DNA of 54,042 bases from Candidatus Melainabacteria bacterium. GTDB lineage: Bacteria > Vulcanimicrobiota > JABDET01. The position numbers and the translations under genes are program-made. This document shows positions 2,146 through 46,531 of the stretch, one piece after another. The stretch spans positions 1-54,042 of the forward strand of contig JABDET010000003.1 in NCBI GenBank assembly GCA_013286945.1, written 5' to 3'. The first letter of the stretch is position 1. Each line of letters begins with the position of its first letter. Below the pieces are notes generated by a model, which had not been told where the DNA came from, did no database searches, and worked only from the letters and a program-made list of their open reading frames with translations.

Positions 2146-2225
2146 TGCTCCTTGTAAACAATTGGTATCACTGGGAATACTTTTTCTAGTTTACCCCATT
2201 TAGTGCGGAAATGGCAAGAGAAGAT

Positions 2226-2242
2226 TGTTACAAACTTGTTAA
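2226..2242 (-). promoter_or_regulatory. Direct-repeat box TTAACA-N5-GTAACA upstream of the 1357..2145 ORF
   Basis: Same 11-bp-period hexamer pair as upstream of the 24.6-30 kb orphan genes; GTGATAC about 70 bp downstream. Confidence 0.45.
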
Positions 2243-14786: not shown

Positions 14787-15068
14787 CTAAATCCACTTCT
14801 CTTCTTGATTCGGCCCCTGGAGGAGCTCCATGAGCTTGTTCGCAAAAGTGTGATGAGGAGAAGGAGCATTGCTGAGCTCCGGGTTTTCTAAGAGGTTGAC
14901 AGTCCGACCTCCAAGTTTGCTAAGACTAACCTGATCGGGCCGTGAACCGGGGAGTTGTTCTTTCCTGGCGGAAGGGAGCAAACCTTTCTCTTCCCCTTGA
15001 CCGCTAACCCCTGGATGGGGCGTAAAGGGGCTAATTGGGTTTGTAGAAGGATTGCTGTTGTTAGCCAT
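14787..15068 (-). CDS. Small hypothetical protein with disordered N-terminus and DQVSLS motif
   Basis: ORF fills the intergenic space and has its own promoter-like sequence. Confidence 0.6.
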   Translation of the reverse strand: MANNSNPSTNPISPFTPHPGVSGQGEEKGLLPSARKEQLPGSRPDQVSLSKLGGRTVNLLENPELSNAPSPHHTFANKLMELLQGPNQEEKWI

Positions 15069-24551: not shown

Positions 24552-24628
24552 TTTACAAAAGGTTAACAATTATGACTCAATTTGTTAATGCCAGGAGCTT
24601 TACAAGCGGGTTTCTGTCGTGATATATA
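24552..24628 (+). promoter_or_regulatory. 11-bp-period direct-repeat operator plus extended -10 promoter
   Basis: TTTACA (24552), TTAACA (24563), TTAATG (24585); TTTACA (24599) and TGaTATATA (24620-24628). Confidence 0.6.
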
Positions 24629-24675
24629 CGGTAGGCAATCGAAGCAAAGATGAATTCAAGAAGGAGGTTTTAAAA

Positions 24676-24972
24676 ATGACACCACCAATTGGAGCAGGCA
24701 TCGGCGTAGATCCGAATGTCCTAGCCGCCATGGGTTTTGCAACCCAACAGGCAACGAATTCGACTATCGCGGGGATGTTAGAATCAGGATTAACAGCTCA
24801 ACTCGGTACGGCCACGACAGCCCAAAAGGGGATTTCCGATCGAACATCATTGGCCGCACAAGTGCAGGCTACTACGATGCAAGAGTATTTGGGGTCACTT
24901 GGACAGGTTACGCAAATGACCGCAAAAGGTAACGAAAAAGTCAATCAAGGAAACACCACAAGCGCTGTATAA
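24676..24972 (+). CDS. Small Ala/Thr/Gln/Gly-rich hypothetical protein (98 aa)
   Basis: AAGGAGG RBS before ATG 24676; helical low-complexity composition. Confidence 0.8.
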   Translation: MTPPIGAGIGVDPNVLAAMGFATQQATNSTIAGMLESGLTAQLGTATTAQKGISDRTSLAAQVQATTMQEYLGSLGQVTQMTAKGNEKVNQGNTTSAV

Positions 24973-25147
24973 CCTCTGCCCAAAGTTCATCTTGGAGAGC
25001 TAAGCATACTCCGGTGAGCTTGTAGAGCTAGATTCTTCTCTGCCATCTCGAGAGGAGGGGGTTATAGGTGCTTTTTTGTTTTTCTCCGAAGGCTTCCTCT
25101 TTCTTGACCTGTCATCTATTTTCCTAGAACATATTCCCGTCAAAAAC

Positions 25148-25225
25148 TTTACAAATTGTTAACGAATGCTTCACATCTTATTTACAATTCCCCCTTTACG
25201 AAACCCATTCAGGACGTGATATTGT
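25148..25225 (+). promoter_or_regulatory. Four-hexamer 11-bp-period operator plus extended -10
   Basis: TTTACA 25148, TTAACG 25159, TTCACA 25170, TTTACA 25181; TGaTATTGT at 25217-25225. Confidence 0.7.
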
Positions 25226-25282
25226 TAATAAAATGAAAACAATTTGTACAGCTGTTAAACGCATGAAGGAGGTCCACGCACC

Positions 25283-25588
25283 ATGGGCGGAATTCTAACA
25301 AGCCTCTTAGGAATTGGTGGAGGGCTTTTCGGAAGCACAGGAGTTCAGGCTGCTTCTGCTTATGCTTCAAGTGCAGCCACCGAGTCTCTGATTGCAGGCC
25401 AACAACAATCAGCGCAGACAATCAAAACCGCAAGAATGGCCACCCAGTACAAGTTACAGACTGATGCCAAGGCGACCACGGCATTGGCCATTGCCAGTCA
25501 GAAATACACCCAAACGGCCGCAGCAGCCAAGGAAATGACTCTCTATCGTCAGGCCTCTAAATCTTGGGCCGATATTCTGGGATCTTAA
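25283..25588 (+). CDS. Small Ala/Gly/Ser/Thr-rich hypothetical protein (101 aa)
   Basis: AAGGAGGT RBS; glycine-rich hydrophobic N-terminus and amphipathic C-terminus. Confidence 0.8.
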   Translation: MGGILTSLLGIGGGLFGSTGVQAASAYASSAATESLIAGQQQSAQTIKTARMATQYKLQTDAKATTALAIASQKYTQTAAAAKEMTLYRQASKSWADILGS

Positions 25589-25662
25589 ATTTCCGCAGCC
25601 GTTTCGAGAGATAGCGTCAAGTTGGGACGAGGAAGCATTCAATTTTTCCCGAAACTAGCCGC

Positions 25663-26367
25663 GTGCAGAATAATAAGGACAAGCTTATCCTGGCTTTAGA
25701 TACACCCGATTCCAAAACAGCCTTTAAACTCCTCCCTCCTCTTGAAGGCCTTATTCATAACGTCAAAGTCGGTCCAGGACTCTTCATTCAAGAAGGCCCA
25801 AAATTGATCGAAAAACTCCACAAGAAAGGCTATCGTGTATTTCTGGATCTGAAACTTCACGACATCCCAAACACGGTTCGCTTAGGGGTCAAAGGGGCCA
25901 AAAAACTTGGGGTTTGGATGCTCTCAGTTCATCTTTTGGGGGGAGAGAGAATGCTGAGAGAAGCCCTTGGAGAAGCAGAAGGAAATCCATTCTTGGTCGG
26001 AATTACGGTCTTGACAAGTTTGAATGGCGAGGATCTTAACCAAATGGGGGTTGGCCGTTCCCCCAAAGAGCAGGTGGGTCTGCTGGCGCAAATGGCCAAG
26101 CAAGTGGGTTTAAATGGTGTGGTGGCTTCTCCTCAAGAAACCGCCATGCTTCGCGCAAAACTGGGCCCGAAGTTTATCCTAGTCACTCCCGGAATACGTC
26201 TTCCTGAATCATCAAAGGATGATCAGGAACGGACCCTTTCCCCCCTCGACGCTCTGAAAGCTGGGGCCGATTACCTGGTCATCGGTCGACCGATTCTGGA
26301 AGCTCCAGATCCAAAGCAATCCCTCCTCTCGATTCTTGGCTCAATCGAAGAAACGAAAAAATCATAG
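25663..26367 (+). CDS. pyrF: Orotidine-5'-phosphate decarboxylase
   Basis: FLDLKLHDIPNTV, VTPGIR, DDQER, VIGRPI. Confidence 0.97.
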   Translation: MQNNKDKLILALDTPDSKTAFKLLPPLEGLIHNVKVGPGLFIQEGPKLIEKLHKKGYRVFLDLKLHDIPNTVRLGVKGAKKLGVWMLSVHLLGGERMLREALGEAEGNPFLVGITVLTSLNGEDLNQMGVGRSPKEQVGLLAQMAKQVGLNGVVASPQETAMLRAKLGPKFILVTPGIRLPESSKDDQERTLSPLDALKAGADYLVIGRPILEAPDPKQSLLSILGSIEETKKS

Positions 26368-26412
26368 CACGTGCCACACAATCATTCTAACAAGACCGCC
26401 CTTGCCGAACTA

Positions 26413-26457
26413 TTTACATTTTGTTCATACTTGTCCAATCCTAACTGTGGGTATACT
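26413..26457 (+). promoter_or_regulatory. Direct-repeat box and -10 upstream of the ankyrin gene
   Basis: TTTACA 26413, TTCATA 26424; TATACT 26452-26457. Confidence 0.45.
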
Positions 26458-26495
26458 CATCATGTGCGCAGTCATCACTTAGGGGGAACCAAGAC

Positions 26496-27953
26496 TTGAA
26501 GATCCATTTTCATCCTACAAGCTCCTCCGGAGGGCCTCCTCGTAAAAAGGGAAACTTGTTCCTGGACGCCCTAGCACAAATTCGGCGCGCAGACGCGAAA
26601 GCTGAAATTGGACCGACCCCGAAAAACAATAAGTCATTGCTGAATGCTGCCAAAAAAGGGGATCTGGTTGAACTTCATGTTGCTTTGCTTTCAGGAGCCT
26701 TTGTTGATGCTCGAGATAAACTACAAAACACTCCGCTGATTCTGGCGGCTTGGAAAGGACACACCGAAGTTGTTCGTTCTCTCCTTGAACATAAAGCAGA
26801 TCCGAATGCCCAAGAAACGATCGGCAACACGGCGCTTCAGTTTGCCACTTTCAAAGGGTATGCTAAGGTTGTCTGTTGTCTCCTTGAACATAACGCGGAT
26901 GCTAATGTCCAAAACCAGTATGGGGAAGTACCGCTAATCGTTGCGTCTGGCAAAGGACATGCTGAGGTTGTCCGTTCTCTCCTGCAGCATAATGCAAGTG
27001 TGAATGCCCTGGATCAGTATGGCAATACCCCTCTTATCCTTGCCTCTTCGGGAGGGCATACTGAGGTTGTCCATTCTCTTCTTCAGTATGGCGCCAAAGT
27101 TGATGCCAAAAACCAGTCTGGGAATACCGCGCTTATCGTTGCCGTCTGTCATGAACACACCGAAGTTGTTCGTTCTCTCCTTCAGCACAACGCCAATGTT
27201 AATGCCTGGAACAAGTGGGGCAACACCGCACTTATCATTGCTGCTACCGAAGGACACGTTTCTGTCACGGAGGTTCTTCTCGAAGGAGGGGCAAACCCAA
27301 GAATGACGGGTTTTCAAGGGATTACACCCCTAAGGGTTGCCACAGACGAGAGAATTATTCGGCTTTTACAAGAACGAGCGAATACGCTTGATCGAAGGCT
27401 GCTGGAGGCAGCTAAAAGCGGCGATGGTCAGAACCTGATTGCCGCCTTAGCCAGCGGCGCTGATGTCGAAGCTCGCGACGAACGCGGTTGGACTCCTCTG
27501 TGTGCCGCTTCAGCACGCGGGCATGAGCATGTTATCAAGTCATTATTGCAACTTGGAGCAAAGCTGAATGCTGAAGATACAGAGCTTAACTCGCCTCTCA
27601 TCTTGGCTGCATGGAACGGCAAATTAAATGCGGTAAAGATGCTGGTGGCCCGGGGTGCGGCTTCCGATGATTTCACTGCCATTTTTGCAAAAGGAGTCAG
27701 TATAAATCATCAAAACCGGGCTGGTATGACTGCTTTGCATTGTGCCGCCCAAAACGGATTCTCTGAAATCGCGGGAGTGCTTCTCGACCACAACGCGAGT
27801 CATGGACTCGAGGACACGAATGGTAACTTTCCTCTGGCACTGGCGATTCAGAATCAACACCCAGACGTCGAAGCCGTGCTCCGGAGACGGGGAGCTCCCG
27901 AAAAAAGAGGCTCCCCTCGGGACGATTTCGGAGGTTCTGGCTTTTCTTCGTAA
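26496..27953 (+). CDS. Ankyrin-repeat protein
   Basis: About 10-12 repeats of G.TPL..A...GH.EVV..LL..GA.VN; tandem ~99-bp nucleotide similarity around 26730-27300. Confidence 0.93.
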   Translation: MKIHFHPTSSSGGPPRKKGNLFLDALAQIRRADAKAEIGPTPKNNKSLLNAAKKGDLVELHVALLSGAFVDARDKLQNTPLILAAWKGHTEVVRSLLEHKADPNAQETIGNTALQFATFKGYAKVVCCLLEHNADANVQNQYGEVPLIVASGKGHAEVVRSLLQHNASVNALDQYGNTPLILASSGGHTEVVHSLLQYGAKVDAKNQSGNTALIVAVCHEHTEVVRSLLQHNANVNAWNKWGNTALIIAATEGHVSVTEVLLEGGANPRMTGFQGITPLRVATDERIIRLLQERANTLDRRLLEAAKSGDGQNLIAALASGADVEARDERGWTPLCAASARGHEHVIKSLLQLGAKLNAEDTELNSPLILAAWNGKLNAVKMLVARGAASDDFTAIFAKGVSINHQNRAGMTALHCAAQNGFSEIAGVLLDHNASHGLEDTNGNFPLALAIQNQHPDVEAVLRRRGAPEKRGSPRDDFGGSGFSS

Positions 27954-27988
27954 ATCAGCTTTAATAAGCTTTCGATCTCTGGCCAAAT

Positions 27989-28055
27989 TTAACAAAGAGT
28001 TAACATTGTTTTCATGTCGGGCTCTAGTCAGGGGTGTGGGTCCAAGGTATATAAT
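27989..28055 (+). promoter_or_regulatory. Three-hexamer 11-bp-period operator plus TATAAT
   Basis: TTAACA 27989, TTAACA 28000, TTCATG 28011; TATAAT 28050-28055. Confidence 0.65.
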
Positions 28056-28089
28056 AGAAATAGAACAGAAAACGAGAGAAGGAGAACTC

Positions 28090-29010
28090 ATGAGTAGCGT
28101 TGGTCCGATCAATGATCCAAAACAGCCAAAATTAACTCCACACGATGCCTCAGCAAATCAGGGGAATATCGATGATTCTCGTGCTCGAGCTGCCGACACC
28201 TTACATGCTTCAATGGTGGACAGTGCCGAACAAGTCGGTCAAAGAGGGCAAAACGCTGCGCACCATACAGGTGCCGGTGCTGAACATAAAGTCGAGGCGG
28301 AACCTCTGCCACAAGAAACTTTTGATTATACCGCTCAGTACATCAAGAGCAAGATAGCCGAAGCAAGAGAACAGCTTGGTGTTGCGTTCGCCTATTTGTT
28401 TCTGGATCCAAAGCCAGTGTTTATTGAAAATGCACTTCAACAGGCTTTGGCCACATTTTTGCAAAATAAATCTACCCTGGTTGACGACCAAAAATTACCC
28501 ACGCATTACAAGAAAGATTTCATGAGAATATTGCAAGCACAATTGAAGGATGCGGTTAAGCTGGACGACCTGGAAAGGATGTTTGACGATGCGGTTCGAA
28601 AAGCCGCAGAAAAGCAGGGAAAAAAGCAACCCGTTTCCGGTCAAATGCTGGGGGCCGAGGATCTAGCAAAAGCCCAAGAAGTAATAGGCAACTTAGGCCC
28701 AGGCGAAGGACTGGAGGGTTACGGCAAGATCTCCAAAGGGATTCAAGACGTGGCTTTGGGTTCAGCGGAATCACAAGCTAACGTGTTCAAGCAACAGATA
28801 GGCGTACAGGCAGCGCTTGGGATGAACAGAAACATGTGGGAAATGATCACACTCATTCCGACTCACGCGGCTCACATCATGACCTTGGTGGGAAGCACTG
28901 CAAAACAGATCGTTGGAGATTTAGGTAGCTTGACGGCAGAATGGGTTAAAGGGACAGCCGAGTGGGTTCAGAAGCTTGGCAGAGGTCTTGCAACTCCTGC
29001 CGTTCAGTAA
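28090..29010 (+). CDS. Hypothetical helical protein (306 aa) with disordered N-terminus
   Basis: AAGGAG RBS before ATG 28090; the upstream extension in the ORF track overlaps the ankyrin gene and is likely spurious. Confidence 0.8.
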   Translation: MSSVGPINDPKQPKLTPHDASANQGNIDDSRARAADTLHASMVDSAEQVGQRGQNAAHHTGAGAEHKVEAEPLPQETFDYTAQYIKSKIAEAREQLGVAFAYLFLDPKPVFIENALQQALATFLQNKSTLVDDQKLPTHYKKDFMRILQAQLKDAVKLDDLERMFDDAVRKAAEKQGKKQPVSGQMLGAEDLAKAQEVIGNLGPGEGLEGYGKISKGIQDVALGSAESQANVFKQQIGVQAALGMNRNMWEMITLIPTHAAHIMTLVGSTAKQIVGDLGSLTAEWVKGTAEWVQKLGRGLATPAVQ

Positions 29011-29182
29011 ATTCATTTCCTCTCGATTTTATCCGATGGTTCCCGTTCTAAAGAATTTGCCAAAACTTCCCGAAGTCGCACTTGTCATTGCTGGGAAGCC
29101 CGGTTTGTTCAACTTGTTCAATAGGAAGCGGCCTGAGATCGTCTATTGGTGTTCCAGCTTAGTGTCAGAATCATAATCAGTA

Positions 29183-29218
29183 ATAAAAACGGAGCTGTCC
29201 ACTGCTGTACAGCTCCGT
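29183..29218 (-). terminator. Intrinsic terminator of the 29262..29714 gene
   Basis: 10-bp stem ACGGAGCTGT/ACAGCTCCGT followed by a T-run on the minus strand. Confidence 0.75.
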
Positions 29219-29261
29219 CTAGCTTCTCCAGTTAAGAACTGGTTAATGCATCGACTTATTA

Positions 29262-29714
29262 TTAGACAACTTTGATAGATCCAGTCCTGGAAATGGATGA
29301 TGACCATCCCCGCCAATATTGTCTGAGATCAATCTTGGAAACCAGTGCCCAGGCTCGCCTCTCAGCATCAGCCAATGACTCTTTCGAGGAAGGTCTAGAC
29401 CCTGGAAGCCTTTGCTCGAATCGAAAAGCTTGCGTTGACCATTCTGGATCGTGGCGTACTGCCGAATCGCCCCGGTTTGAAGGGTTCGCGACTGGAGTGA
29501 CCCACACTGGACTAAAACGGGTGTTTGCATTGCGGGTCTGGCTTGTAAGCCCTGTCCCATCGCCATTCATGTTCATTTCTGCTGCTGCAAAATTACCGCC
29601 AACGTGGCGAGCTGCACTGGGTGCTCTTCCATTCTCGTCTGCGGCTGCAACTCCAAGAAATGGATTTCTAGCCCCTACCCCTCCACGAATTACGCTTACT
29701 GCTTGCATACTCAA
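29262..29714 (-). CDS. Hypothetical protein (150 aa)
   Basis: GAAAGGAG RBS, downstream terminator, motif shared with the 30875 ORF. Confidence 0.7.
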   Translation of the reverse strand: MSMQAVSVIRGGVGARNPFLGVAAADENGRAPSAARHVGGNFAAAEMNMNGDGTGLTSQTRNANTRFSPVWVTPVANPSNRGDSAVRHDPEWSTQAFRFEQRLPGSRPSSKESLADAERRAWALVSKIDLRQYWRGWSSSISRTGSIKVV

Positions 29715-29799
29715 TTAGCTCCTTTCATTAGAAATGACGACACACGTATTTCTCAACATTAAGTCTAACCGAAATTGAAAGCAAGATCCACTAAGGGCA

Positions 29800-29921
29800 A
29801 ATAAAGGGAAGGTTAAAAATGGATTAAGCAGAGGAACTTTGCAGCTTTTCGAGAAGTTCATTAAACGTTAACAATTCTTCCCGTTTAGCCTATTCCCTCT
29901 CTTCTTAATCCTTGGTATACT
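29800..29921. promoter_or_regulatory. Divergent promoter region with 11-bp-period boxes on both strands
   Basis: Minus strand: TTAATC, TTAACC, TTTATT (plus positions 29822, 29811, 29800). Plus strand: TTCATT 29857, TTAACA 29868, TGgTATACT 29913-29921. Confidence 0.5.
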
Positions 29922-29959: not shown

Positions 29960-30103
29960 ATGGCAACAGTTTCGAGTGTTCAATCACCAGATTTTGCTGT
30001 AGTCGCCCTTAACAATGCCATTAACATGGGGTGGCTTGAACAGACGCCAAGCAAACGGGCCGGAACTATCGCAAGTAAAATGGGTATTATTAAAGAAGAT
30101 TAG
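29960..30103 (+). CDS. Small hypothetical protein (47 aa)
   Basis: MATVSSVQSPDFAVVALNNAINMGWLEQTPSKRAGTIASKMGIIKED*; GGGGTGA RBS; first ORF after the promoter; absent from the ORF track. Confidence 0.6.
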   Translation: MATVSSVQSPDFAVVALNNAINMGWLEQTPSKRAGTIASKMGIIKED

Positions 30104-30139
30104 TGACTTAAGAAAAACCAATCTGGAGGAATGATCGAA

Positions 30140-30841
30140 ATGACAGTTGAGAAAACGAATCCATCGGGAGCCGGCACTCCGGTCGAAGGTAGTACTGGAC
30201 CTCAGGGCGAGACAGGCGGCACCGCAGAATCTGACATTCCAACACCGAAACCCCGTCCGGACACTACTCTCACTCCGGATGACTGGAAAAGAATCAGGAG
30301 AATGTTAAGGCGTCTAGCTGTGCCTGCTCTCGCTGCATCCACTGTGGCTCTAGCAACACCGCAAGGGACTCAACACAGAGCGGCGCCACAAGGAACACAA
30401 CAGACAGTGCCAACGCGAGGCGAGACCCAAGAGTTCCCGTTGCATGAAGTTCCATTTTTTGGCAAGGGTGGGGAAAAGATCGTACGTGAAGGGATGCCAA
30501 AGGAAAATCCAACGAGCAAGGGGACAGGTGACCCGGTCGCGGATCTGCTTGCCAACGTCGATGTACAGGATAAGATTAAAGACAACCTCTTCTTAAACGT
30601 TTTGGCCCAGATCCAAATCGAAGTCGCCAAGGCGGGTATCAACACGTTCTTGATGCAGAAGAAGTGGGAAATTGAAAAGTACTTGTCGTTCGTTCAATGG
30701 GGACAAGACATTGGCCAGCTCCTTGTAAGTTCCTTACTCAGCATGAGAAAAGGCTGGGAACAACTGTTTGCTGACTGGAACAGGGAAGAAAGACGAATTG
30801 CTATGGAAAATATTCGGGCCCGTTCTGGCGGCGGTGGTTGA
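30140..30841 (+). CDS. Hypothetical protein with disordered N-terminus and helical C-terminus
   Basis: GGAGGA RBS 9 nt before ATG 30140; shares the NLFLxxLAQI motif with the ankyrin protein. Confidence 0.8.
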   Translation: MTVEKTNPSGAGTPVEGSTGPQGETGGTAESDIPTPKPRPDTTLTPDDWKRIRRMLRRLAVPALAASTVALATPQGTQHRAAPQGTQQTVPTRGETQEFPLHEVPFFGKGGEKIVREGMPKENPTSKGTGDPVADLLANVDVQDKIKDNLFLNVLAQIQIEVAKAGINTFLMQKKWEIEKYLSFVQWGQDIGQLLVSSLLSMRKGWEQLFADWNREERRIAMENIRARSGGGG

Positions 30842-30874
30842 TGTTTTTCAGGCGGATTGAACTCCGAGGCTAAC

Positions 30875-31945
30875 ATGCCCCTAAAACTAGTCGGAGAAGT
30901 CAATGAAGGTAAATCATCCTGGGCGCCGGTAGCGCAAGCAGGCGGTGGTCGAATATTGCCAAAACGGATTCCAGCAATTCAAGCCGAGCCCCGGACAGAG
31001 CATGTACTCGATCGCTTCGAAGGTGCTCTGCGTGTGAAGCGAATGGAATCCACCCCTTATGAAGAACTTATAAGGAGCCACAATGAGTGCATGGAAATCT
31101 TTTTCGGAGATGGCAAAACAAAACCGACTGCCTTCCAGAGACACGAGCGACTCTACAGTAACATCGAGCAAGACACCCAGAACAAGATTAAGATGGCGGC
31201 TGACGGAATCTACCACCAAATAGAAAAGTTGGTTGCAGAAGCAATCCTAGCCAAATTCAAGAAAAACGGCCCCTTGACGCCAGAAGAGATCGTAGCCACC
31301 GTTAACAATGCGCTTCAACGTAATTTCGTTCCCATCAGTTGTATCGGGGTGGGACTTGACAAAGTATCCCAGAGCTATGTTGGAGTTACTTTGATCATGT
31401 TCAACATGTTTGACCGATATGAGATGGTGGTGAAAGCAGACGTCGACTGCCTTAAGGCAGGTCATTTTGTGGGTCGACTCGCTAGCACACTCCCCATGGA
31501 ATTACCTCGCTTGCAACGACTTTGTCCAAAAGATGCAGTAGATTACAAGGGACGTTCACCAAAATATCCTGATAATATGACGGAAGAGGAGTTTAAATTC
31601 CAGCTAAAGGATAATGAGGCCGATCGCTTCAACACCGAAATAAACATGCGGCGATGGGACTGGGAGCGAGCTTCGGGCAAAGCCATTCGCCGGTTTAACC
31701 GGAGTGTCGCGAAGTATGACCTTCGTCAGGATTGGGTCGATCTGGATGCCCCAACAAGCTTCCTCGCGGACACGGCAGATAGCTGGCGCCCCGGTTATAT
31801 CAGCTCGGACAAACCGTATCCACTTCCACCCCCCTGGAGCAACAAGCATGCTTACACCCAGCATCTGATGGGAAAAGACCGTAAGCCTCCAGAAGAAGAG
31901 CCAATTCTTTACAGTGCCCCCTACGGTCAGAGGCTCGCGGCCTAA
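30875..31945 (+). CDS. Hypothetical protein (~356 aa)
   Basis: Long ORF, GAGG before ATG 30875, no recognisable domain. Confidence 0.78.
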   Translation: MPLKLVGEVNEGKSSWAPVAQAGGGRILPKRIPAIQAEPRTEHVLDRFEGALRVKRMESTPYEELIRSHNECMEIFFGDGKTKPTAFQRHERLYSNIEQDTQNKIKMAADGIYHQIEKLVAEAILAKFKKNGPLTPEEIVATVNNALQRNFVPISCIGVGLDKVSQSYVGVTLIMFNMFDRYEMVVKADVDCLKAGHFVGRLASTLPMELPRLQRLCPKDAVDYKGRSPKYPDNMTEEEFKFQLKDNEADRFNTEINMRRWDWERASGKAIRRFNRSVAKYDLRQDWVDLDAPTSFLADTADSWRPGYISSDKPYPLPPPWSNKHAYTQHLMGKDRKPPEEEPILYSAPYGQRLAA

Positions 31946-34450: not shown

Positions 34451-35296
34451 GTGAGTCAAGTGGCTCAACGCGGAACCCTTTTTGTTTGCCCAACCCCTCT
34501 TGGAAATTTGGAAGACATTACCTTGAGGGTTTTGCGTGTTCTGAAAGAAGTTGACCTCATTGCCGCTGAGAACACCCAACACACCCAGAAACTACTTCAT
34601 CACTTTGACATCCATAAACCAATGGTCAGCTATTATGATTCCGGGTCCTCTGAAGCCAAGGAAGAAAAACTGATTGAAAAACTAAACCAAGGAAAATCAA
34701 TTGCTCTTGTTTCTTCCGCGGGCACCCCGCTTGTGAGTGATCCTGGATTCAAGCTTGTCAGAAGATGCTACGAGGAAGGGTTGTCCGTAGTTTCGCTTCC
34801 AGGACCGTCCGCGTGTGTCACCGCCCTCGTGGCTTCAGGCCTTCCAACGAACCAATTCTTTTTTGCTGGGTTTCTTTCTTCCAAGTCCAAAGCAAGAAAG
34901 ACGATGTTAAAACAAGTCAAGTCATTCCCTGCAACTTTGGTTTTCTATGAAGCTCCCCATCGAATTCTCGAAAGCTTAAAGGATTGTTTGGAGGTGCTCG
35001 GTGACCGCCCTGCCGCCTTAGTACGCGAGCTCACTAAGATTCATGAAGAAGTCATTGGAGGAACACTTTCTCTCATCGTGAAGAAAGTCGAGGAACGTCC
35101 TCCGAAGGGAGAAATCACACTGGTTATTGCCGGCGAAGAAGCGCCAGAGGAAATCGAACCAGGGCAACTAAAACAGGAAATTGAAGCCTTGGTAGAAAAG
35201 GGTGTTTCGATCCGAGAAGCCTCTCGTGAAATTGCAAAAAAATATGACATCTCAAAAAACAAAGTTTACGCTTTGGCTCACAACCTTACTCGTTAG
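34451..35296 (+). CDS. rsmI: 16S rRNA C1402 2'-O-methyltransferase
   Basis: PTPLGNLEDIT, AGTPLVSDPG, YEAPHR, RELTKIHEE. Confidence 0.96.
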   Translation: MSQVAQRGTLFVCPTPLGNLEDITLRVLRVLKEVDLIAAENTQHTQKLLHHFDIHKPMVSYYDSGSSEAKEEKLIEKLNQGKSIALVSSAGTPLVSDPGFKLVRRCYEEGLSVVSLPGPSACVTALVASGLPTNQFFFAGFLSSKSKARKTMLKQVKSFPATLVFYEAPHRILESLKDCLEVLGDRPAALVRELTKIHEEVIGGTLSLIVKKVEERPPKGEITLVIAGEEAPEEIEPGQLKQEIEALVEKGVSIREASREIAKKYDISKNKVYALAHNLTR

Positions 35297-35843
35297 TGCC
35301 CTTTTTGTCTCCGGATGTGGAGGGACAAAGGTAGAGCTTGGTTTTCCTTTAAATGACGGAAATACTTGGACGTATCAAGGAACGGTTACTTATCAGCTTG
35401 GAAAACAACAACAATCGATGCCTGCCCTCACCTTTCAGCTTCATTGCCGAAAGCTTTCACCCAAGCATACCGCTCCTCTCGAACTAACCCTCGTGGAAGA
35501 AACGGAGCCGATTTGGAAAGGTCAATTCGTGACAGCTCCCCAAGGACTTCTGAACCCCTTAACTGGAGAATTCTGGCTTCCGGCAGAAGTCATTGTTGGG
35601 AAAAAATGGAACACGACCTTTGATGGTGACAAAGTAACTTTCATCGTTAGAAGTCAAACCAACACCACGGTTCCTGCGGGCACTTTCCCGACCTATCTCA
35701 TCGATTTTAAAGGACCGAAAAAGGGAACTGGATCCTTTTGGCTCGATCCAGTGGTCGGTGCCGTCGCCCTTGACTGGAACTCGAAAACCCCGGGAGGTCA
35801 ATCGAAAACGCACCTGGAGCTTGTCTCTTACGACTTGCCCTAA
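35244..35843 (+). CDS. Putative lipoprotein, beta-rich
   Basis: Lipobox-like VSGC after a hydrophobic stretch; FPLNDGNTWTY and TVPAGTF motifs; start uncertain. Confidence 0.7.
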   Translation: MTSQKTKFTLWLTTLLVSALFVSGCGGTKVELGFPLNDGNTWTYQGTVTYQLGKQQQSMPALTFQLHCRKLSPKHTAPLELTLVEETEPIWKGQFVTAPQGLLNPLTGEFWLPAEVIVGKKWNTTFDGDKVTFIVRSQTNTTVPAGTFPTYLIDFKGPKKGTGSFWLDPVVGAVALDWNSKTPGGQSKTHLELVSYDLP

Positions 35844-37920: not shown

Positions 37921-38235
37921 ATGGAACTTTCGCAAGCCGCAGCAGCACTCTCCAAAAAAGGAGTTCAGGTTCGTACACGTCGCCGACAGACACTTTGCAT
38001 CGCGTGTGGAAAATCATTCACGGCCCGATCAGCAAAGGCTCAATTTTGCTCAAAATCTTGTTTGGCGAAAGTGTGGTATTCTAGGAAAAATGACGACACC
38101 TACTCGAAGCTTAGAAAGATTCATCAGCTCGTCGATGCACTCATCGGAACAAACCCACGCATTGACGCGACATTGAAAAAGATTTCGAAGCTCTTCATCC
38201 TGGCCAAGATGGACAGCCATCAAAGGATCTCTTGA
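37921..38235 (+). CDS. Small basic zinc-finger protein (CxxC...FCSxxC)
   Basis: CIACGKSF..AQFCSKSC treble-clef-like motif; dedicated promoter. Confidence 0.7.
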   Translation: MELSQAAAALSKKGVQVRTRRRQTLCIACGKSFTARSAKAQFCSKSCLAKVWYSRKNDDTYSKLRKIHQLVDALIGTNPRIDATLKKISKLFILAKMDSHQRIS

Positions 38236-41430: not shown

Positions 41431-42942
41431 TTATTCCTCGATTTCCAGGGATTCGTCCTTTTTCGGCTTTAACAGGGGAAACAAGACCACTTCCCGGATG
41501 CTCGCGGAATCGCTAAAAAGCATGCACAGTCTATCGATTCCTATGCCAAGGCCTCCGGTTGGGGGCATCCCAAATTCAAGGGCCCTTAAGAAATCCTCAT
41601 CCATCATGTGAGCCTCCTCGTCCCCTGCTTCTCTCAAATCGAGTTGCTTCAGGAAGCGTTGGCGTTGATCGTCTGGGTCATTGAGCTCCGAAAACGCGTT
41701 GGCAAGCTCCATGTGCATCCCGAAAAGCTCAAACCGGTAGGTCAACGTGGGGTCTTCAGGCTTTCGCTTGGCTAAGGGTGAAATCTCGATCGGATAGTCG
41801 ATGATAAAAGTGGGCTGGACCAAATGTGGCTCAACGACCACCTCAAAAATCTTATCCAAGAGTTGCCCCCCATGGGTCTTACCATCGACTGGAATCCGTA
41901 GTCTTCTTGCAATGTCCTTAGCCTTCTCAAAGTCTCGAATTTCCTGAAGCTCAATCTTCCCATATTCCATGAGCGCGCCAGCATAGGACAATTTCTTGAA
42001 TGGGGGTTCAAAGGAGATGGTCTTCCCCTGGTAAGGAACCTGTCTTGTCTTTAGGAGGTCATCCGACAAGAAAACCAACAAGTCTTCCGTGAGCTTCATC
42101 ATCCCTTCATAATCACTGTAGGCTTCATAGACCTCCAGCATGGTGAACTCAGGGTTGTGACGCGTAGAAACCCCTTCGTTTCGAAAAATCCGCCCGATTT
42201 CATAAACGCGTTCGAGTCCGCCTACGATGAGGCGCTTGAGATAAAGCTCGGTAGCAATTCGCAAGTAGAGATCGATGTCAAGCGCATGATGGTGCGTGAT
42301 GAAGGGACGCGCTTCGGCTCCCCCAACTAAACCCGTCATCACGGGAGTTTCCATCTCATGGAAATTTCGCTCATCGAGAAAACGACGAACCAACGAAACC
42401 AATCGGCTCCTCAAAAGAAAAATCTTTCGAACCTCAGGGTTCACGATCAGGTCCAAGTAACGCTGACGATAACGAACTTCCACATCTTTCAATCCATGCC
42501 ATTTTTCCGGCAAAGGATACAAACACTTTGCCAACGGTTGGAAGCGTTCCACGAGAACGGTAAGTTCTCCACGCTTGGTGCGAAACGGACTCCCCTCGAT
42601 CCCAAGAACATCTCCTAAATCCAGCAATTCAAAAATTCCCCATTGTTCTTCGCCAAGCTTGTCTAACTTGAAATACACCTGCACTCTCCCGGACAAGTCA
42701 ACCAAATCCCCAAACGCTGCTTTTCCGTGCAAACGCAAGGCCATCATCCTGCCCGCGATTTGGACACGATCCTCAGAGTGTTCTTCCCCTTTTAGCGGGG
42801 TATAGCGTTCGAGGACATCTTGAACTGAATGCGTGACTTTAACCTGTTGACTGTAGGGGTCACACTTTTGCCGAAGTAATTGCAGGTGCTCACGTCGCTG
42901 TTGGATTTGGTCACTGGCTACCGCTGTCGTCGACTCCTTCAA
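41431..42942 (-). CDS. lysS: Lysine--tRNA ligase (class II)
   Basis: RYRQRYLDL, FRNEG, HNPEFTMLE, GLGIGIDRL. Confidence 0.98.
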   Translation of the reverse strand: MKESTTAVASDQIQQRREHLQLLRQKCDPYSQQVKVTHSVQDVLERYTPLKGEEHSEDRVQIAGRMMALRLHGKAAFGDLVDLSGRVQVYFKLDKLGEEQWGIFELLDLGDVLGIEGSPFRTKRGELTVLVERFQPLAKCLYPLPEKWHGLKDVEVRYRQRYLDLIVNPEVRKIFLLRSRLVSLVRRFLDERNFHEMETPVMTGLVGGAEARPFITHHHALDIDLYLRIATELYLKRLIVGGLERVYEIGRIFRNEGVSTRHNPEFTMLEVYEAYSDYEGMMKLTEDLLVFLSDDLLKTRQVPYQGKTISFEPPFKKLSYAGALMEYGKIELQEIRDFEKAKDIARRLRIPVDGKTHGGQLLDKIFEVVVEPHLVQPTFIIDYPIEISPLAKRKPEDPTLTYRFELFGMHMELANAFSELNDPDDQRQRFLKQLDLREAGDEEAHMMDEDFLRALEFGMPPTGGLGIGIDRLCMLFSDSASIREVVLFPLLKPKKDESLEIEE

Positions 42943-44769
42943 TCGTTCCTCCTCATGGCATACTCAGGGATCAAGCGCTTCAAGAATTCCGCTAAGTTGA
43001 CCTTGTCTTCTTTCTCACAAATCATTTTTATCTCATCCACGGCCCGCGTCAATTCGTCAAGCGGCCGGGTATTTGAGCGCACCACGAGAATCTTCTCAAA
43101 CGATGTCGGTTCAACCTTTTCGTAATCGGCGTAAAGTTTTTCATAAAGTTTCTCCCCTGGCCTTGGCCCCACGATGCTTACCGGAATATCCTTCTCAGGT
43201 TCGTAACCGGCCAAACGAATCATTTGGTAAGCGAGATCAAGAATATTCACCGGCCGTCCCATATCCAGCAAAAAGATTTCTCCTCCGCTTCCAATGGCTG
43301 CAGCTTGAAGAACAAGTTGTACCGCTTCAGGAATGGTCATGAAATACCGGGTCATCTCAGCATGGGTAACCGTGACTGGCCCCCCCCATGAGGATTTGTT
43401 TGCGAAACGTTGGAACAACGCTTCCCCGAGAATCCAGCACATTTCCAAATCGAACAGAGATAAACTGGGGAGCCGGTTGATTTCCACTAGTCACTTCTCG
43501 GTTGAGCGCTTGCAGAAACATCTCTGAAAGCCTTTTTGTTGCCCCCATGATGCTTGCAGGCTGAACTGATTTATCCGTAGAGAGAAAGACAAATTTCTTC
43601 ACTTGGTATCGGAATGCAAGCTTTGCTAAAGTGCAGGTTGCAAGAAAATTGTTTCGAATCGCTTCAAATGGCTGGGCTTCCATGAAGGGAACATGTTTGT
43701 GCGCTGCTGTGTGAAAGACAACATCGGGCTTTGTTGTTTCAAGAATCTTAGCCATTCGTTCCTCATCGCGCACATCTGCAATGATCGGAGTAACCAAACA
43801 GCTCTTTTTCGCTTGCAACTCAAGAAAAATCTCGTAAATCGAGTTTTCGCCATGCCCAATCAGCGCAAGGTGTGAGGGTTGAAAATTCACGATTTGCCGA
43901 CAGAGTTCCCCTCCAATCGAGCCCCCAGCTCCTGTCACAAGAACTGAACGTCCAGAGAGATACGATTGAAGCGATTCCAGGCTAATCGAAATGGGTTCCC
44001 GTCCCAGAAGATCCTCGATTCGAATCTCTCGCACCGGATTAAGCTTGACCTTTCCATTCATGAACTCATGGATGCTCGGTATGGTTTTGAATTCGACATT
44101 GAGACCTTGACAAAGAGACAAGACTTCTTTCATGATCGAAGGGGATGGCAAGGTGATCACCACGTCACGAATGCCTCGCTCCCGAACAACCTTGGGGAGA
44201 TCCGATCGTTTCCCGAGAATGGGAACACCATGAATTCTCAAATTCCTGTTTTCCTCTTCCTCGTCCAGGATCCCGATAGGCCAATAGGTCGAATGCTCCC
44301 GTTTTAGATCGCGAATGACAGCCTCCCCTGCATCTCCCGCCCCAATGATGAGAACTTTCCGCGCCCCAGCGCGCAACGCAAAACCAGAGCTTGCTAGGCG
44401 AAGCAACAATCGAACTCCGCCTAAAAGGAGAAGCGCGAGAAGCCAAGCAATGATGACCACCCCGCGAGGATAGAAATCACCACCACTGACAAACACTGGA
44501 ATCGCGAAAATGCCAAAACTTACCGTCACCGCATTGAAAAGGTGAATCCCATCTTCGATGCTCGCATAACGCCAAAGTTTATTGTAAAGACCAAAGACCC
44601 ACAGGATTCCTGCGCTTAGAACGCAGAGCGTGACGTAGGGAATGATGTTGGGTTGGAGATAACGTGCTGGGATGGCCCCTTCAAATCGAATCACAAGTGC
44701 AACAAGCAAGCTCCCCAAAAGCAAGATGAGATCGACGGTTAAAAGAAAAAGCCGATGATGAAATTTCAT
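42939..44769 (-). pseudogene. Nucleoside-diphosphate sugar 4,6-dehydratase (CapD/PglF-like), frameshifted at a G8 tract
   Basis: ORFs 43357..44769 and 42939..43487 join as ..MGGPVTVTH.. if one G is removed at 43380-43387; motifs TGAGGSIG, STDK, RFGNVL. Confidence 0.88.
43380..43387. repeat. C8/G8 homopolymer at frameshift
   Basis: Seven Gs would restore the frame. Confidence 0.85.
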
Positions 44770-45909
44770 TGTTGTCCCACGGTGGTCTTTTGCTGATGAA
44801 AAATACGGGTAAGGACTTGCGCAATCTGTTCAATCTGGCTTTCCTTAAGATCATAAAAGATCGGAAGGCATAATATTCTTTGGCAAATCCTCTCGGTGTT
44901 GGGTAGCGTTTGACTCCTTGATGCGTACCGCAAGAAAAATTCTTGCTGATGCAACGGGGGAGAAAAATATTTTCGATTGGGAATTCCCTCGCTTTCGAGC
45001 GTGGATGAAACATCATCACGCGAGATAACCCAATCATCCAAGAGAAGAATGGCGAAGTCCTTGTACGAAGAACGAGACTGAGGTTCAATCTCTTGGAACG
45101 CGATGGGGAGGTGACTGAGGGCTTTCTTGTACCCTTCAGCAATTTTGTTTCGACGCTTTGCATGTTCTTCAAGTAAAGCGAGAGCTTCAATGCCCAAAGC
45201 GCCTTGAAATTCCGACATTCGTCCATTGAGCCCTTGGTAATGTGTTTCGTAGTTTTCCGCATGCCCATACTCTCTCATGGATTCAAGCACCTTCGCCAAA
45301 GCCGAATCATGGGTCGCCACGATTCCTCCCTCGCCGGTGCAAAGAAGTTTCGTTGCACTCGTGCTAAAAACATGAATTTTTCCATGACTTCCTGCTGGCT
45401 TCCCCTGATAAGAAGTGCCAAACGCATGAGCAGCATCGAGAATCAAGGGGAGGCCATGCCTTTCGCAAAACGACTCGAGGTCTGAAAGAGGGGGGGGGAT
45501 TACCAAAAACGTAAGGGACCAAAACCGCACGGGTCTCTTGGGAAAGCTTTCCCTCCAAGTCTTTCATGCTCACCGTGAATCGGGTCGAATCACAATCAAC
45601 AAACACCGGCGTCACCTGGTTCCAAAGGAGTGCTTGAACGGTAGCCGTAAAGGTGAACGCGGGAACGAGACAATCACCCCTGACGTTTAATGCTTTTAGC
45701 GCAATCATTAATCCGGTGGTGCAACTTGAGACGGCAAGCGCATTCTTAACCTGCAGGTGCTGCGCCACTTTCTTTTCGTAATCCCGGACAATCGGCCCCT
45801 TTGTCACTCCCCCTTGGCCCCATTGCGAATCGAGATGCTTGGTCACTTGCGCCAGAGGAGGAAGCAGTGGGCGAGCAAAGGGGAGAGGTGGATTAAAGGC
45901 TCTTGTCAC
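44766..45909 (-). pseudogene. DegT/DnrJ/EryC1/StrS aminotransferase (PglE-like), frameshifted at a C9 tract
   Basis: N-half (SSCTTGL, FTFTAT) and C-half (DAAHAFG, K..CTGEGG) join as VFGNPPPLSDLE if one C is removed at 45490-45498. Confidence 0.88.
45490..45498. repeat. G9/C9 homopolymer at frameshift
   Basis: Eight Cs would restore the frame. Confidence 0.85.
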
Positions 45910-46531
45910 CGTAAACCCCTTTTCTCCCCAAAACCAATCCAAAGCTTCTAAAGAAAATCTTCGCATCCAACCAGAACGAAAAATTCTCAATGTATTGGAG
46001 ATCCAATTCGATTCTTTCAGGCCAAGTGAGGGCGTTTCTTCCACTGACCTGTGCAAGTCCGGACATTCCTGGTTTAACAAGTAACCGCCGCCTTTGCTGC
46101 GCGGTGTAGGCGTCTACTTGATACGCCAGAGTGGGCCTTGGCCCAATCAAACTCATTTCTCCTTTGAAAACGTTCCAAAGCTGAGGAAGCTCATCCAAGG
46201 ACCATCGACGCAAGAATCTTCCCAGTGGCGTGATTCGTGGATCCTGTTCACTGGTTTCGTAACCCCCTCTTTTAAGGGCGTCCTTCACCATGGTTCGAAA
46301 CTTATGAACATGAAATGTTTTTCCTAAGTACCCTACCCTTTCCTGGGAAAAGAAAGCAGGGCCCTCTCCGGCCAATTTCACGAGAAGAGCGATCAAGACG
46401 AAGACTGGGAAGAAAAAGATTAACGCCATAAGAGAAACCCCAAAATCGATAGCTCGTTTGATGCGTCGTTTCCAGGGGGGAACATGCTGCAAGATCCAAG
46501 AGAAATCACGATTGGCAAACGAACTATCCAT
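45893..46531 (-). CDS. Bacterial sugar transferase (PglC/WbaP-like phosphoglycosyltransferase)
   Basis: KRAID, KFRTM, SLDELPQLWNV.KGEMSLIGPRP. Confidence 0.93.
   Translation of the reverse strand: MDSSFANRDFSWILQHVPPWKRRIKRAIDFGVSLMALIFFFPVFVLIALLVKLAGEGPAFFSQERVGYLGKTFHVHKFRTMVKDALKRGGYETSEQDPRITPLGRFLRRWSLDELPQLWNVFKGEMSLIGPRPTLAYQVDAYTAQQRRRLLVKPGMSGLAQVSGRNALTWPERIELDLQYIENFSFWLDAKIFFRSFGLVLGRKGVYGDKSL

Follow-up and report, generated by a model that had tools for sequence, protein, structure and literature searches.

Phased direct repeats upstream of orphan genes and a flagellar-type export operon in an uncultured soil bacterium of the Vulcanimicrobiota

Results

Repeat arrays in the window

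The window, by which we mean the whole 54,042-nucleotide stretch analysed, belongs to the genome of an uncultured soil bacterium whose assembly is 67% complete and measures 1.73 Mb. At 25148..25186 (+) four in-register units, TTTACA, TTAACG, TTCACA and TTTACA, are followed by a -10-like element, TG-a-TATTGT (25217-25225, +), 37-39 nt past the start of the last unit (25181), and then by an orphan gene of 101 aa (25283..25588, +) that has no Pfam family and for which no homologue was found in the 5 related genomes searched. A second array (27989..28016, +) has strong TTAACA units at 27989 and 28000, then a degenerate one, TTCATG, at 28011; its promoter, with the -10-like TATATAAT (28048-28055, +) 48 nt past the 28000 unit, has no -35 consensus, and serves an orphan gene of 306 aa (28090..29010, +) whose sole match among 1.84 billion representative proteins is itself. 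At 24552..24568 (+) the strong units are TTTACA (24552) and TTAACA (24563), with a degenerate TTAATG at 24585 (+). Here a separate -35-like TTTACA (24599-24604, +) stands 18 nt ahead of the -10-like TATATA (24623-24628, +), which begins 60 nt past the start of the 24563 unit; the downstream gene (24676..24972, +), with the Shine-Dalgarno sequence AAGGAGG, encodes an orphan of 98 aa with no Pfam family, in which neither a signal peptide nor a membrane segment was found.

Two further plus-strand sets, put forward in the preliminary description, each retain one strong unit, but the second unit is degenerate. The site at 26413..26429 (+) pairs TTTACA (26413) with TTCATA (26424), its -10-like TATACT (26452-26457, +) lies at an offset of 39, and an ankyrin-repeat gene (26496-27953) follows. 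The site at 29857..29873 (+) pairs TTCATT (29857) with TTAACA (29868, inside CGTTAACAATT); its -10-like TATACT (29916-29921, +) lies at an offset of 48, ahead of a gene for 47 aa (29960-30103) and then the orphans 30131-30841 and 30857-31945. All the plus-strand sets described earlier were thus found, but one array had been overlooked, at 2226..2242 on the minus strand. It comprises TTAACA (2242-2237) and GTAACA (2231-2226), with a -10-like TAAACT (2193-2188, -) 38 nt past the proximal unit start and an orphan gene without a Pfam family (1357-2136, -) downstream.

The plus-strand hexamers belong to a conserved operator, in which 2-4 copies of tGTT(A/T/C)ACAa follow one another head to tail, one helical turn (11 bp) apart. 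The 11-bp register holds at every position first listed, but the consensus TT[ATC]ACA describes only nine of the 14 plus-strand hexamers (24552, 24563, 25148, 25170, 25181, 26413, 27989, 28000 and 29868), the other five being TTAATG, TTAACG, TTCATA, TTCATG and TTCATT. A -10-like element does follow each plus-strand set, as had been noticed, and in the register seen genome-wide. It had also been said that the sets precede every orphan unit and were not seen before housekeeping genes. The latter agrees with our finding that no array, counted as a pair of units 11 bp apart that each score at least 4 bits, precedes any Pfam-family gene within the window; the former does not stand, as five Pfam-less ORFs (2109-3083, 14787-15068, 35202-35843, 37921-38235 and 52768-54041) have no array.

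The minus-strand hexamers at 29822, 29811 and 29800, earlier assigned to the same operator, read TTAATC, TTAACC and TTTATT, and none of the three matches the consensus. They lie in a set of four 11-bp units (29789..29828, -), CTTAATC / TTTAACC / CTTTATT / CTTAGTG, with a -10-like TAGACT (29767-29762, -) 28 nt past the last unit start and an orphan gene (29262-29714, -) downstream. The pattern [CT]TTAA[CT]C-N4-[CT]TTAA[CT]C has just two occurrences in the 1.73 Mb, at 29789-29828 and ahead of pstS, and we therefore take this set to be a Pho-type box, a different operator that is separate from the main regulon. The pstS promoter carries the distinct (C/T)TTAA(C/T)C unit and no TGTTAACA array, so that the box shared with the pst phosphate-transport operon is the minus-strand one only. 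The pstS gene adjoins a gene for a PhoB-like OmpR-family regulator.

Genome-wide occurrence and promoter register

The 11-bp-phased TT[A/T/C]ACA repeat is real. In the intergenic segments of the genome, TT[ATC]ACA pairs number 24, 17 and 6 at start-to-start spacings of 11, 22 and 33, where 200 dinucleotide-preserving shuffles gave means of 0.20, 0.16 and 0.23 and a maximum of 3; the comparison with shuffled sequence proposed at the outset thus comes out clearly on the side of the motif. Off the grid, at spacings of 9, 10, 12 and 13, the counts are 3, 2, 1 and 0. A relaxed unit model gives 65, 32 and 19 pairs at d=11, 22 and 33 against 0-10 at other spacings. The model was seeded from the hexamer of the preliminary description, and an unseeded count of hexamers with a self-like partner at d=11 agrees with it, GTTAAC, TTAACA and TGTTAA coming out on top (27, 27 and 26 pairs; other spacings give 0.2-1.5). 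The operator unit on the sense strand is tGTTAACAa. In its perfect form, TGTTAACA, the unit is fully palindromic over 8 bp, and the asymmetric units (TGTTCACA, TGTTTACA) hold one orientation towards the gene. Operator sites are AT-rich relative to the 48% GC genome.

Genome-wide we find 86 strand-specific arrays, of which 35 are seen on both strands, and these collapse to 69 loci in the 67%-complete genome. A TATAAT-like -10 follows the start of the strong promoter-proximal unit by 37/38 or 48/49 nt, and across the arrays the -10 is phase-locked at 37/38 (10 arrays), 48/49 (11) and 25/26 (5); 29 of the 86 arrays have an in-register -10 with no more than one mismatch in 6 positions. With the presumed start site placed 7 nt past the -10, the unit registers fall at about -38, -49, -60 and -71, and lone strong units genome-wide also show -10 peaks at 38-39, 48-50 and 59. 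The -10 boxes and gene starts are consensus assignments rather than mapped transcript starts. Judged by eye, promoters of the 37-nt register mostly have no -35 consensus, and several of the 48-nt class have their own TTGAC -35 downstream of the array. A sigma-factor -35 would be a single hexamer 16-18 nt before the -10; here several units are present, and the spacers measure 31 or 42 nt.

Orientation is likewise constrained. For 36 of the 51 non-mirrored arrays a gene start, accepted if it had a Shine-Dalgarno sequence or opened an ORF of 100 aa or more, lies 30-200 nt downstream (median 90.5 nt), and in a simple strand test a downstream gene is found forward for 42 of the 51 and in reverse for 23. 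Two traits of OmpR/PhoB-family operators are therefore present: head-to-tail direct repeats with 10-11 bp centre-to-centre spacing, seen in the peaks at d=11, 22 and 33, and a constant helical phase and orientation with respect to the core promoter, seen in the -10 offsets and the strand bias.

The genes downstream are largely orphans, as had been suggested from the window. Pfam-less genes make up 38 of 51 array-downstream genes and 32 of 80 background ORFs; counting only proteins of 100 aa or more gives 29 of 41 and 15 of 63 (Fisher p=2.6e-6). The orphan targets are lineage-specific, polar and without a Sec signal, and among the remaining targets are ankyrin proteins, peptidases and the flgB-led operon that opens a flagellar-type export cluster. 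In the same-family genome G001, 12 of 20 scanned downstream genes are Pfam-less, and among the rest are SLT, CHAP+SLT, a rod protein and a DSP phosphatase. In G000 an SLT gene inside the flagellar-type cluster carries an array. Peptidoglycan hydrolases (SLT and CHAP+SLT in G001, SLT in G000) are a small minority of targets.

Conservation and candidate regulators

We compared 30 relatives of the same phylum (Eremiobacterota/Vulcanimicrobiota, UBP9-like). In 19 of them TTHACA-N5-TTHACA exceeds the N7 control at least 4-fold, with about 30 to 200 exact hexamer pairs in each enriched genome, and in G001 the promoter layout, array then -10, looks alike by eye. Paired units lie upstream of the FlgB-like gene in 17 of the 18 genomes (8 families) that have one. 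The array-controlled cluster runs flgB ... fliF, G, H, I, J, K, M, N, O, P, Q, R, flhA, and in the distant, flagellin-less G008, 4-unit arrays lie both ahead of the flgB-like gene and inside the cluster. A search of the 98%-complete G001 and G008 for flagellin and filament cap found neither, while the cluster is kept. With 69 loci in the genome, class-wide occurrence and the first operon of the flagellar-type cluster among its targets, the regulon is neither hidden, as first imagined, nor local.

What protein binds the arrays? A winged-helix regulator encoded outside the window had been proposed, and no DNA-binding response regulator is indeed encoded in the window. The genome encodes 4 full OmpR-family regulators (Trans_reg_C winged-helix) and one SARP-like protein. 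Among these the best candidate is the WalR/MtrA-like response regulator encoded on contig C25, whose chance of being the binder we would put a little below even. Encoded in an operon pgeF-RR-HK with a cytoplasmic kinase, it is found at 67-90% identity in 25 of the 30 relatives and is the sole OmpR-family regulator conserved phylum-wide; the other two tested (on C11 and C57) show family-level conservation only, with about 50% identity outside the family. In family f11 (4 genomes) the C25 counterpart has about 52% identity and there are zero motif pairs. Its best NCBIfam match is YycF, at 302.4 bits, under the 340-bit equivalog cut-off, and outside the phylum it is Bacillota regulators that come closest to it (54-62% identity); against CtrA it scores 166 bits where the cut-off is 350, and it does not qualify as a CtrA orthologue. 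In the 415-aa kinase the only domains are HisKA, HATPase_c and a weak GGDEF-like N-domain; membrane, HAMP and PAS parts are absent, and no hydrophobic stretch was seen in its translation. No array lies near the C25 regulator gene, here or at 16 related loci, and so there is no sign of autoregulation. Seven relatives (five f4 genomes, G022 and G027) have a C25 orthologue without genome-wide enrichment, six of which retain the flgB-like site, and in the enriched G003, which is 62% complete, no C25 orthologue was found.

Discussion

The arrays are a known kind of operator serving a new, large regulon, and the mechanism, a phased winged-helix operator, is conventional. The core site of B. subtilis PhoP has four TT(A/T/C)ACA repeats with an 11-bp period, from about -60 to -20. 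The arrays share its hexamer consensus and period, its 2-4 sense-strand units upstream of the -10, its weak or absent -35 and, as predicted here, occupancy by several dimers. They differ in that they are not a phosphate regulon, pstS having its separate (C/T)TTAA(C/T)C box, and in that they serve a far bigger regulon (69 loci), in which orphans predominate. Related direct repeats with 11-nt units are described for Streptomyces PhoP (PMC2275107).

The WalR/YycF box of Bacillota is given as TGTWAH-N5-TGTWAH, and at S. aureus isaA it is placed 49 nt upstream of the start site (PMC6624279), much as the arrays are here. The period is again 11 bp, the operator consensus contains TGTTAA-N5-TGTTAA, wall hydrolases (SLT, CHAP+SLT) are a small minority of the targets, and the candidate C25 regulator has YycF as its best NCBIfam match and Bacillota proteins as its nearest outside relatives. 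Unlike WalRK, however, this regulator falls below the YycF equivalog cut-off (302 versus 340 bits) and its operon kinase is cytoplasmic, whereas WalK-type kinases are membrane proteins with an extracellular loop, HAMP and PAS; the asymmetric units fit the WalR word on the opposite strand only, and the regulon is many times larger. The CtrA box of Alphaproteobacteria, described as TTAA-N7-TTAAC and as controlling flagellar genes (PMC3692519), is contained letter for letter in the GTTAACA-N4-GTTAACA consensus. A flagellar-type basal-body operon is a conserved target here as well, but the phylum is different and the C25 regulator far below the CtrA cut-off (166 versus 350 bits). CtrA sites overlap the -35, and the present sites lie further upstream. 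For PmrA of Legionella and Coxiella, the sequence of the tandem repeat was reportedly given by Zusman and co-workers in 2007. This winged-helix response regulator is described as controlling about 40 lineage-specific effector genes and secretion-system parts (PMC6989116). In both cases a tandem repeat upstream of the -10 marks lineage-specific genes, so that the operator can be used to find them; PmrA, however, serves a type IVB secretion system of intracellular pathogens and reads a different repeat word, and secretion of the present orphans is only a hypothesis.

We think it probable that an OmpR/PhoB-type regulator acts on the phased sense-strand repeats and jointly activates about 70 or more transcription units. 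The binding architecture that had been ascribed to this family is what we find, one shared, phased direct-repeat operator. Tandem dimers of one such winged-helix response regulator would most likely line up on one face of the DNA and bring RNA polymerase to promoters most of which have no -35, switching on the units together. Tandem OmpR/PhoB-family dimers on phased repeats are described as substituting for the -35/sigma region 4 contact (PMC11825685).

Several other readings deserve consideration. A real operator with a binder other than the C25 regulator is rather unlikely, though the strongest of them. The binder might be another OmpR-family regulator, possibly encoded in the third of the genome that is unassembled; with an assembly only 67% complete, the true regulator may be missing from it, and the absence of arrays near the C25 gene points the same way. 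The regulators on C11 and C57, however, are conserved within their family only. Another candidate is the SARP-like HD-GYP-wHTH-BTAD fusion protein on C11, since SARP-type proteins likewise bind 11-bp-phased repeats and this one is encoded here, but the module is patchy (12 of 31 genomes, at most 40% identity) and was not found in 9 motif-enriched genomes. A dimeric helix-turn-helix protein might instead read each palindromic TGTTAACA unit, as the perfect 8-bp symmetry and the 35 of 86 arrays seen on both strands would allow; the one-way asymmetric units TGTTCACA and TGTTTACA fit head-to-tail binding better. It is quite improbable that the repeats are silencer or repressor sites, of the nucleoid-associated, xenogeneic-silencing type, that hold recently acquired orphans off. 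The targets are overwhelmingly lineage-specific and the sites AT-rich against 48% GC, as one would then expect, but the phasing is strictly 11 bp, the -10 register fixed and the orientation single, the sites lie upstream of the core promoter instead of covering it, and in 8 families the element also stands ahead of a flagellar-type operon that is conserved and inherited vertically. Moreover, the scarcity of -35 consensus in promoters of the 37-nt register (by eye) suggests a need for an activator.

Could the hexamers simply be read by polymerase, as the -35 of an alternative sigma factor or an UP-like element? TTNACA resembles the sigma-70 -35 hexamer TTGACA, and the TTTACA at 24599 is a plausible -35, 18 nt before its -10. 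Strong units, however, lie 31 or 42 nt before the -10 rather than 16-18 nt and occur in sets of 2-4 at 11-bp steps, and several 48-nt-class promoters have a separate TTGAC -35 downstream of the array; we regard this reading as very improbable. Hardest of all to credit is the literal B. subtilis PhoP reading, in which the plus-strand arrays are PHO boxes and the orphans belong to a phosphate-starvation regulon. The TT[A/T/C]ACA word and the four-unit layout do match the PhoP core site, and a PhoB-like regulator gene adjoins pstS, but the pstS promoter uses the (C/T)TTAA(C/T)C box, present only twice in the genome, in place of a TGTTAACA array, and the targets of TGTTAACA are the flagellar-type operon and orphans, not phosphate genes.

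On the favoured reading, joint activation by an OmpR/PhoB-type regulator, one conserved switch ties about 70 promoters here to a flagellar-type export cluster, with a two-promoter Pho regulon set apart from it, and a single regulator-kinase pair is nominated for biochemical testing. Through the operator, the largest coherent set of genes of unknown function in an uncultured phylum can be approached from sequence alone, and these orphans can be ranked as one functional group, serving perhaps a motile or a host- or prey-contact phase, or encoding exported proteins. A more adventurous thought, which we consider unlikely, is that genes bearing the operator may encode the cargo of a protein-export machine derived from the flagellum. 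If the orphans, together with the ankyrin proteins, peptidases and phosphatase, are substrates, this would be a new effector-export system in the UBP9-like class of Eremiobacterota (which we take to be Xenobia), and its effector list could be read directly from the TGTTAACA arrays.

Results

An 11-bp-phased operator in intergenic DNA

The 11-bp-phased motif is real, because its paired occurrences stand far above those in shuffles that preserve dinucleotide composition. The preliminary description had placed TT[A/T/C]ACA hexamers on an 11-bp grid before the orphan genes of the window, which is contig C3 of an assembly of 1.73 Mb in 106 contigs (48% GC, 67% completeness). The grid holds for every position claimed, but the hexamer fits at only 9 of 14 positions on the plus strand and at none of three on the minus strand. 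Genome-wide, the strict pair TT[ATC]ACA-N5-TT[ATC]ACA occurs 36 times, 27 of them in intergenic DNA, taken as the 8.6% of the sequence left by a crude ORF mask. In the histogram of spacings, 11, 22 and 33 stand out sharply, and no other spacing is comparable. Pairs lying entirely within intergenic segments number 24, 17 and 6 at these spacings; 200 dinucleotide-preserving shuffles gave means of 0.20, 0.16 and 0.23 and a maximum of 3, clearly not the equal frequency at which the motif was to have been given up. In an unseeded test, where any hexamer is scored for a partner 11 nt further on that differs from it at one position or none, GTTAAC, TTAACA and TGTTAA rank on top. The same test scored GAATTC/TGAATT as a second periodic word, which we rejected as an operator, as it belongs to a dispersed hairpin repeat. 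This element of ~58 bp has at least 25 copies, mostly intergenic (locus L189:19887-19950; C1:62154, C5:23139, C9:1694, C24:9895, C98:793 and ~20 more), and consists of a hairpin rich in GC (CCAGCGGT...ACCGCTGG), then the palindrome GGATGAATTCATCC and TGAATTCA; the second word is thus spurious. A weight matrix for the operator unit drifted on iteration, its sites rising from 130 to 327, and was left out of the results.

The unit has the consensus tGTT(A>T,C)ACAa. The perfect unit, TGTTAACA, is a palindrome, so that 35 of the 86 strand-specific arrays (two or more units 11 bp apart) are mirror images; collapsing these leaves 69 loci. Asymmetric units (TGTTCACA, TGTTTACA) keep a constant orientation despite the palindromic perfect form. 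Gene calls throughout are crude ones made for this analysis, and -10 boxes and start codons are predictions. Of the 51 non-mirrored arrays, 36 are followed on the same strand, at 30-200 nt, by an ORF of at least 100 aa or by a gene start with a Shine-Dalgarno sequence; the distance has a median of 90.5 nt and an interquartile range of 80-102. A simple gene test is passed by 42 of the 51 in forward orientation versus 23 in reverse. The TATAAT-like hexamer starts 37/38, 48/49 or 25/26 nt past the start of the proximal strong unit, that is, the -10 is stepped by one helical turn, and 29 of the 86 arrays have a -10 matching at five or more of six positions within register. By eye, the 37-class promoters have no -35 consensus, and several of the 48 class have their own TTGAC 17 nt upstream of the -10. 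Lone strong units have -10 peaks at 38-39, 48-50 and 59 (51 counts versus ~18 expected), which lends support to the two weak sites of the window, at 26413 and 29868. Every promoter in the window is compatible with the genome-wide registers, and an additional window array, at 2226-2242 on the minus strand, precedes an orphan at 1357-2136.

Pfam assigns ordinary housekeeping genes to the window's flanks (58 window ORFs; shikimate pathway, glycine cleavage, TonB/ExbBD, RtcB, Ddl, LysS); from 24.6 to 32 kb lies a stretch of genes without a Pfam family, broken by pyrF and an ankyrin protein. The one sequencing run containing the region (X1) is labelled soil metagenome. Two sugar biosynthesis genes, Polysacc_synt_2 (42939-44769, minus) and a DegT-type aminotransferase (44766-46080, minus), each appear as two overlapping ORFs covering complementary portions of the Pfam profile, which suggests frameshifts or assembly errors.

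A separate Pho-type box

The minus-strand hexamers had been counted with the shared regulon. They form instead a different operator, otherwise present only before pstS. The box at 29789-29828 (minus) has four 11-bp units, CTTAATC-CATT-TTTAACC-TTCC-CTTTATT-TGCC-CTTAGTG, and with both genome strands counted, there are exactly two occurrences of the pattern [CT]TTAA[CT]C-N4-[CT]TTAA[CT]C. The window copy precedes the 150-aa orphan at 29262-29714 (minus); the other, at L004:696-740, is upstream of pstS on contig C79, where pstS comes after an OmpR-family regulator gene. In both copies the last unit begins 27-28 nt upstream of a -10-like hexamer and so overlaps the -35 position, as in the classical PHO box. 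The sharing of this box with pstS makes the 150-aa orphan a predicted phosphate-starvation gene, outside the main regulon, and predicts a phosphate regulon of two promoters governed by the pstS-linked regulator.

Genes of the main regulon

Of 51 scanned genes that come first after an array outside the window, 38 have no Pfam family at E<=1e-4. Among ORFs called identically in four arbitrary 20-kb regions, 32 of 80 lack a family (p=1.4e-4, all lengths); restricting both sets to proteins of 100 aa or longer gives 29 of 41 versus 15 of 63 (Fisher p=2.6e-6). The other 13 regulon genes could be assigned to families: two ankyrin proteins, an ATLF/M90-like metallopeptidase, a clostripain-family peptidase, an HTH protein, FeeM, an FkbM methyltransferase, a beta-helix protein, a rod protein, DnaA, a Rieske protein, a hexapeptide transferase and Dtd. 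DnaA and Dtd may owe their places to DnaA-box clusters and mirror-image arrays. TTCACA arrays at two loci (L040 and L032; C41:5065 and C19:1904-3142) adjoin TTATCCACA-type DnaA boxes and dnaA, and may be origin or DnaA-box clusters rather than regulon sites.

Hydropathy scanning gave no membrane segment for most regulon proteins, and by eye few have signal-peptide-like N-termini. They are more polar than background: the S/T/P/N/Q/G fraction of residues 2-30 is 0.418 versus 0.309 (p=6e-6). A specific N-terminal export signal is unsupported, since the whole proteins share the enrichment (0.366 versus 0.303). Several proteins (L006-L056 and window 28090) have similar short polar N-termini, MSSVGPINDP, MSGTGPINAP, MTGPGSIGPADPIN and MSESVNPISTP; no alignment-level similarity was found among them. 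A search of 1.84 billion representative proteins with the 306-aa orphan (28090-29010, plus) recovered that protein alone. Five related genomes contained no match to this orphan or to the one of 101 aa (25283-25588, plus), making footprinting at the two promoters impossible. Language-model look-alikes, which are leads only, all scored below 0.9, with 0.82 for the 98-aa orphan (24676-24972, plus) and 0.77 for the 306-aa orphan, whose look-alikes include several type III effector families.

Conservation and the flagellar-type export cluster

Relatives of the genome's most conserved response regulator (see Discussion) bear titles such as 'bacterium UBP9_UBA1432' and 'Vulcanimicrobiota bacterium', which puts the organism in Eremiobacterota/Vulcanimicrobiota; UBP9 corresponds to the class 'Xenobia'. 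The phylum names follow PMC9758169 and PMC11484240. In 19 of 30 relatives the array pattern is at least four times as frequent as its N7 control, kin genomes among these being non-independent samples. Same-family genomes gave 31 versus 3 and 41 versus 4; G008, a distant relative, gave 199 versus 5 and G030 193 versus 28. No excess over the control was seen in five genomes of family f4, or in G022 and G027, and four f11 genomes have zero matches to pattern and control alike. In G001, of the same family, the layout of array then -10 is alike by eye, and 12 of 20 downstream genes scanned have no family; among the others are SLT, CHAP+SLT, a rod protein, PilZ, GH76, a ketosynthase and a dual-specificity phosphatase.

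The footprint stands out most clearly before the flgB-like gene, with paired units upstream in 17 of the 18 genomes having that gene, across eight families, f4 and G022/G027 among them. Many of these promoters carry a four-unit module, GTTAACA-N4-TTAACA-N2-TTG(A/C)TAATA-N5-TAAT. Of the two flagellar-type export sets in the present genome, at L189:6145-20000 plus L168:1209-3236 (C2) and at L190 (C82), the C2 set is the complete and array-controlled one. The flgB-like gene comes first in the C2 cluster, followed by flgC, fliE, fliF, fliG, fliH, fliI, fliJ, SLT, fliK, a rod/hook-like gene, fliM, fliN, fliO, fliP, fliQ, fliR and flhA. A separate array in the 37 register belongs to the SLT gene, both here and in G001, and in G008 four-unit arrays lie before the flgB-like gene and mid-cluster. 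The C2-type set is the sole flagellar-type set in G001 and G008.

Discussion

What protein binds the arrays? It is probably a regulator of the OmpR/PhoB type. Candidates in this genome are four full OmpR-family regulators and a single SARP-like HD-GYP-wHTH-BTAD protein. Only one of the four, on contig C25 (L001:1483-2175, minus), is kept across the phylum, with 90% identity within the family, 67-85% in other families and at least 67% in 25 of 30 relatives; its best matches fall to ~52% in f11 and to 48% in G003, an incomplete genome. An orthologue is present in 18 of the 19 motif-enriched relatives. The C25 regulator scores highest against the YycF/WalR family (302 bits, short of the 340-bit cut-off), followed by MtrA and PhoB; among solved proteins, its best relatives are MtrA and RegX3. 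The order pgeF-regulator-kinase is conserved in the phylum and also found in some Clostridia. The paired kinase (L001:200-1447, minus) is soluble, with no membrane segment, and the weak GGDEF resemblance of its N-terminal domain (E=1.4e-4) hints at a cytoplasmic signal of nucleotide type. The assignment is weakened by the lack of arrays within ~1.5-3 kb of the regulator gene at 17 loci (this genome and 16 related), and by seven genomes that have the orthologue without genome-wide enrichment of the motif. Autoregulation is unsupported, yet unrefuted. We tentatively name the C25 regulator as the candidate binder, with the odds slightly against it. The OmpR-family regulators on C11 and C57 are less likely candidates, having ~50% identity outside the family and no conservation there. 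The SARP-like fusion, also less likely, is patchy (12 of 31 genomes). It is an 833-aa open frame (730 aa within the locus, L005:1-2193) with HD-GYP, TPR repeats, winged-helix Trans_reg_C and BTAD; its gene immediately precedes those of a paired OmpR-family regulator and kinase, and related fusions are abundant in G006 (13 matches).

The position and orientation of the arrays make activation the likely outcome of binding. Dimers of the phosphorylated regulator would sit head-to-tail on consecutive units, on one helix face, from about -71 to -38, and would recruit or stabilise RNA polymerase where the -35 is poor. The B. subtilis PhoP site has the same word and period as the present arrays. The mechanism proposed is that of M. 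tuberculosis PhoP, for which cryo-EM work (PMC11825685) describes one to three tandem dimers replacing the contact of the -35 with sigma region 4. The array consensus includes the WalR box and the CtrA box, in the forms given in PMC6624279 and PMC3692519, respectively. For each of Pho, WalRK and CtrA at least one defining test of membership failed, and it follows that this is a new regulon of a familiar operator type, unusually large and class-wide. Its logic is akin to that of the Legionella PmrA effector regulon, as described in PMC6989116. We note that G001 and G008 keep the array-controlled export cluster, yet flagellin N/C domains (PF00669, PF00700) and FliD (PF07195) were not found in these two genomes, each 98% complete. 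A bold and improbable reading is that the arrays represent the cargo list of a flagellum-derived export machine.
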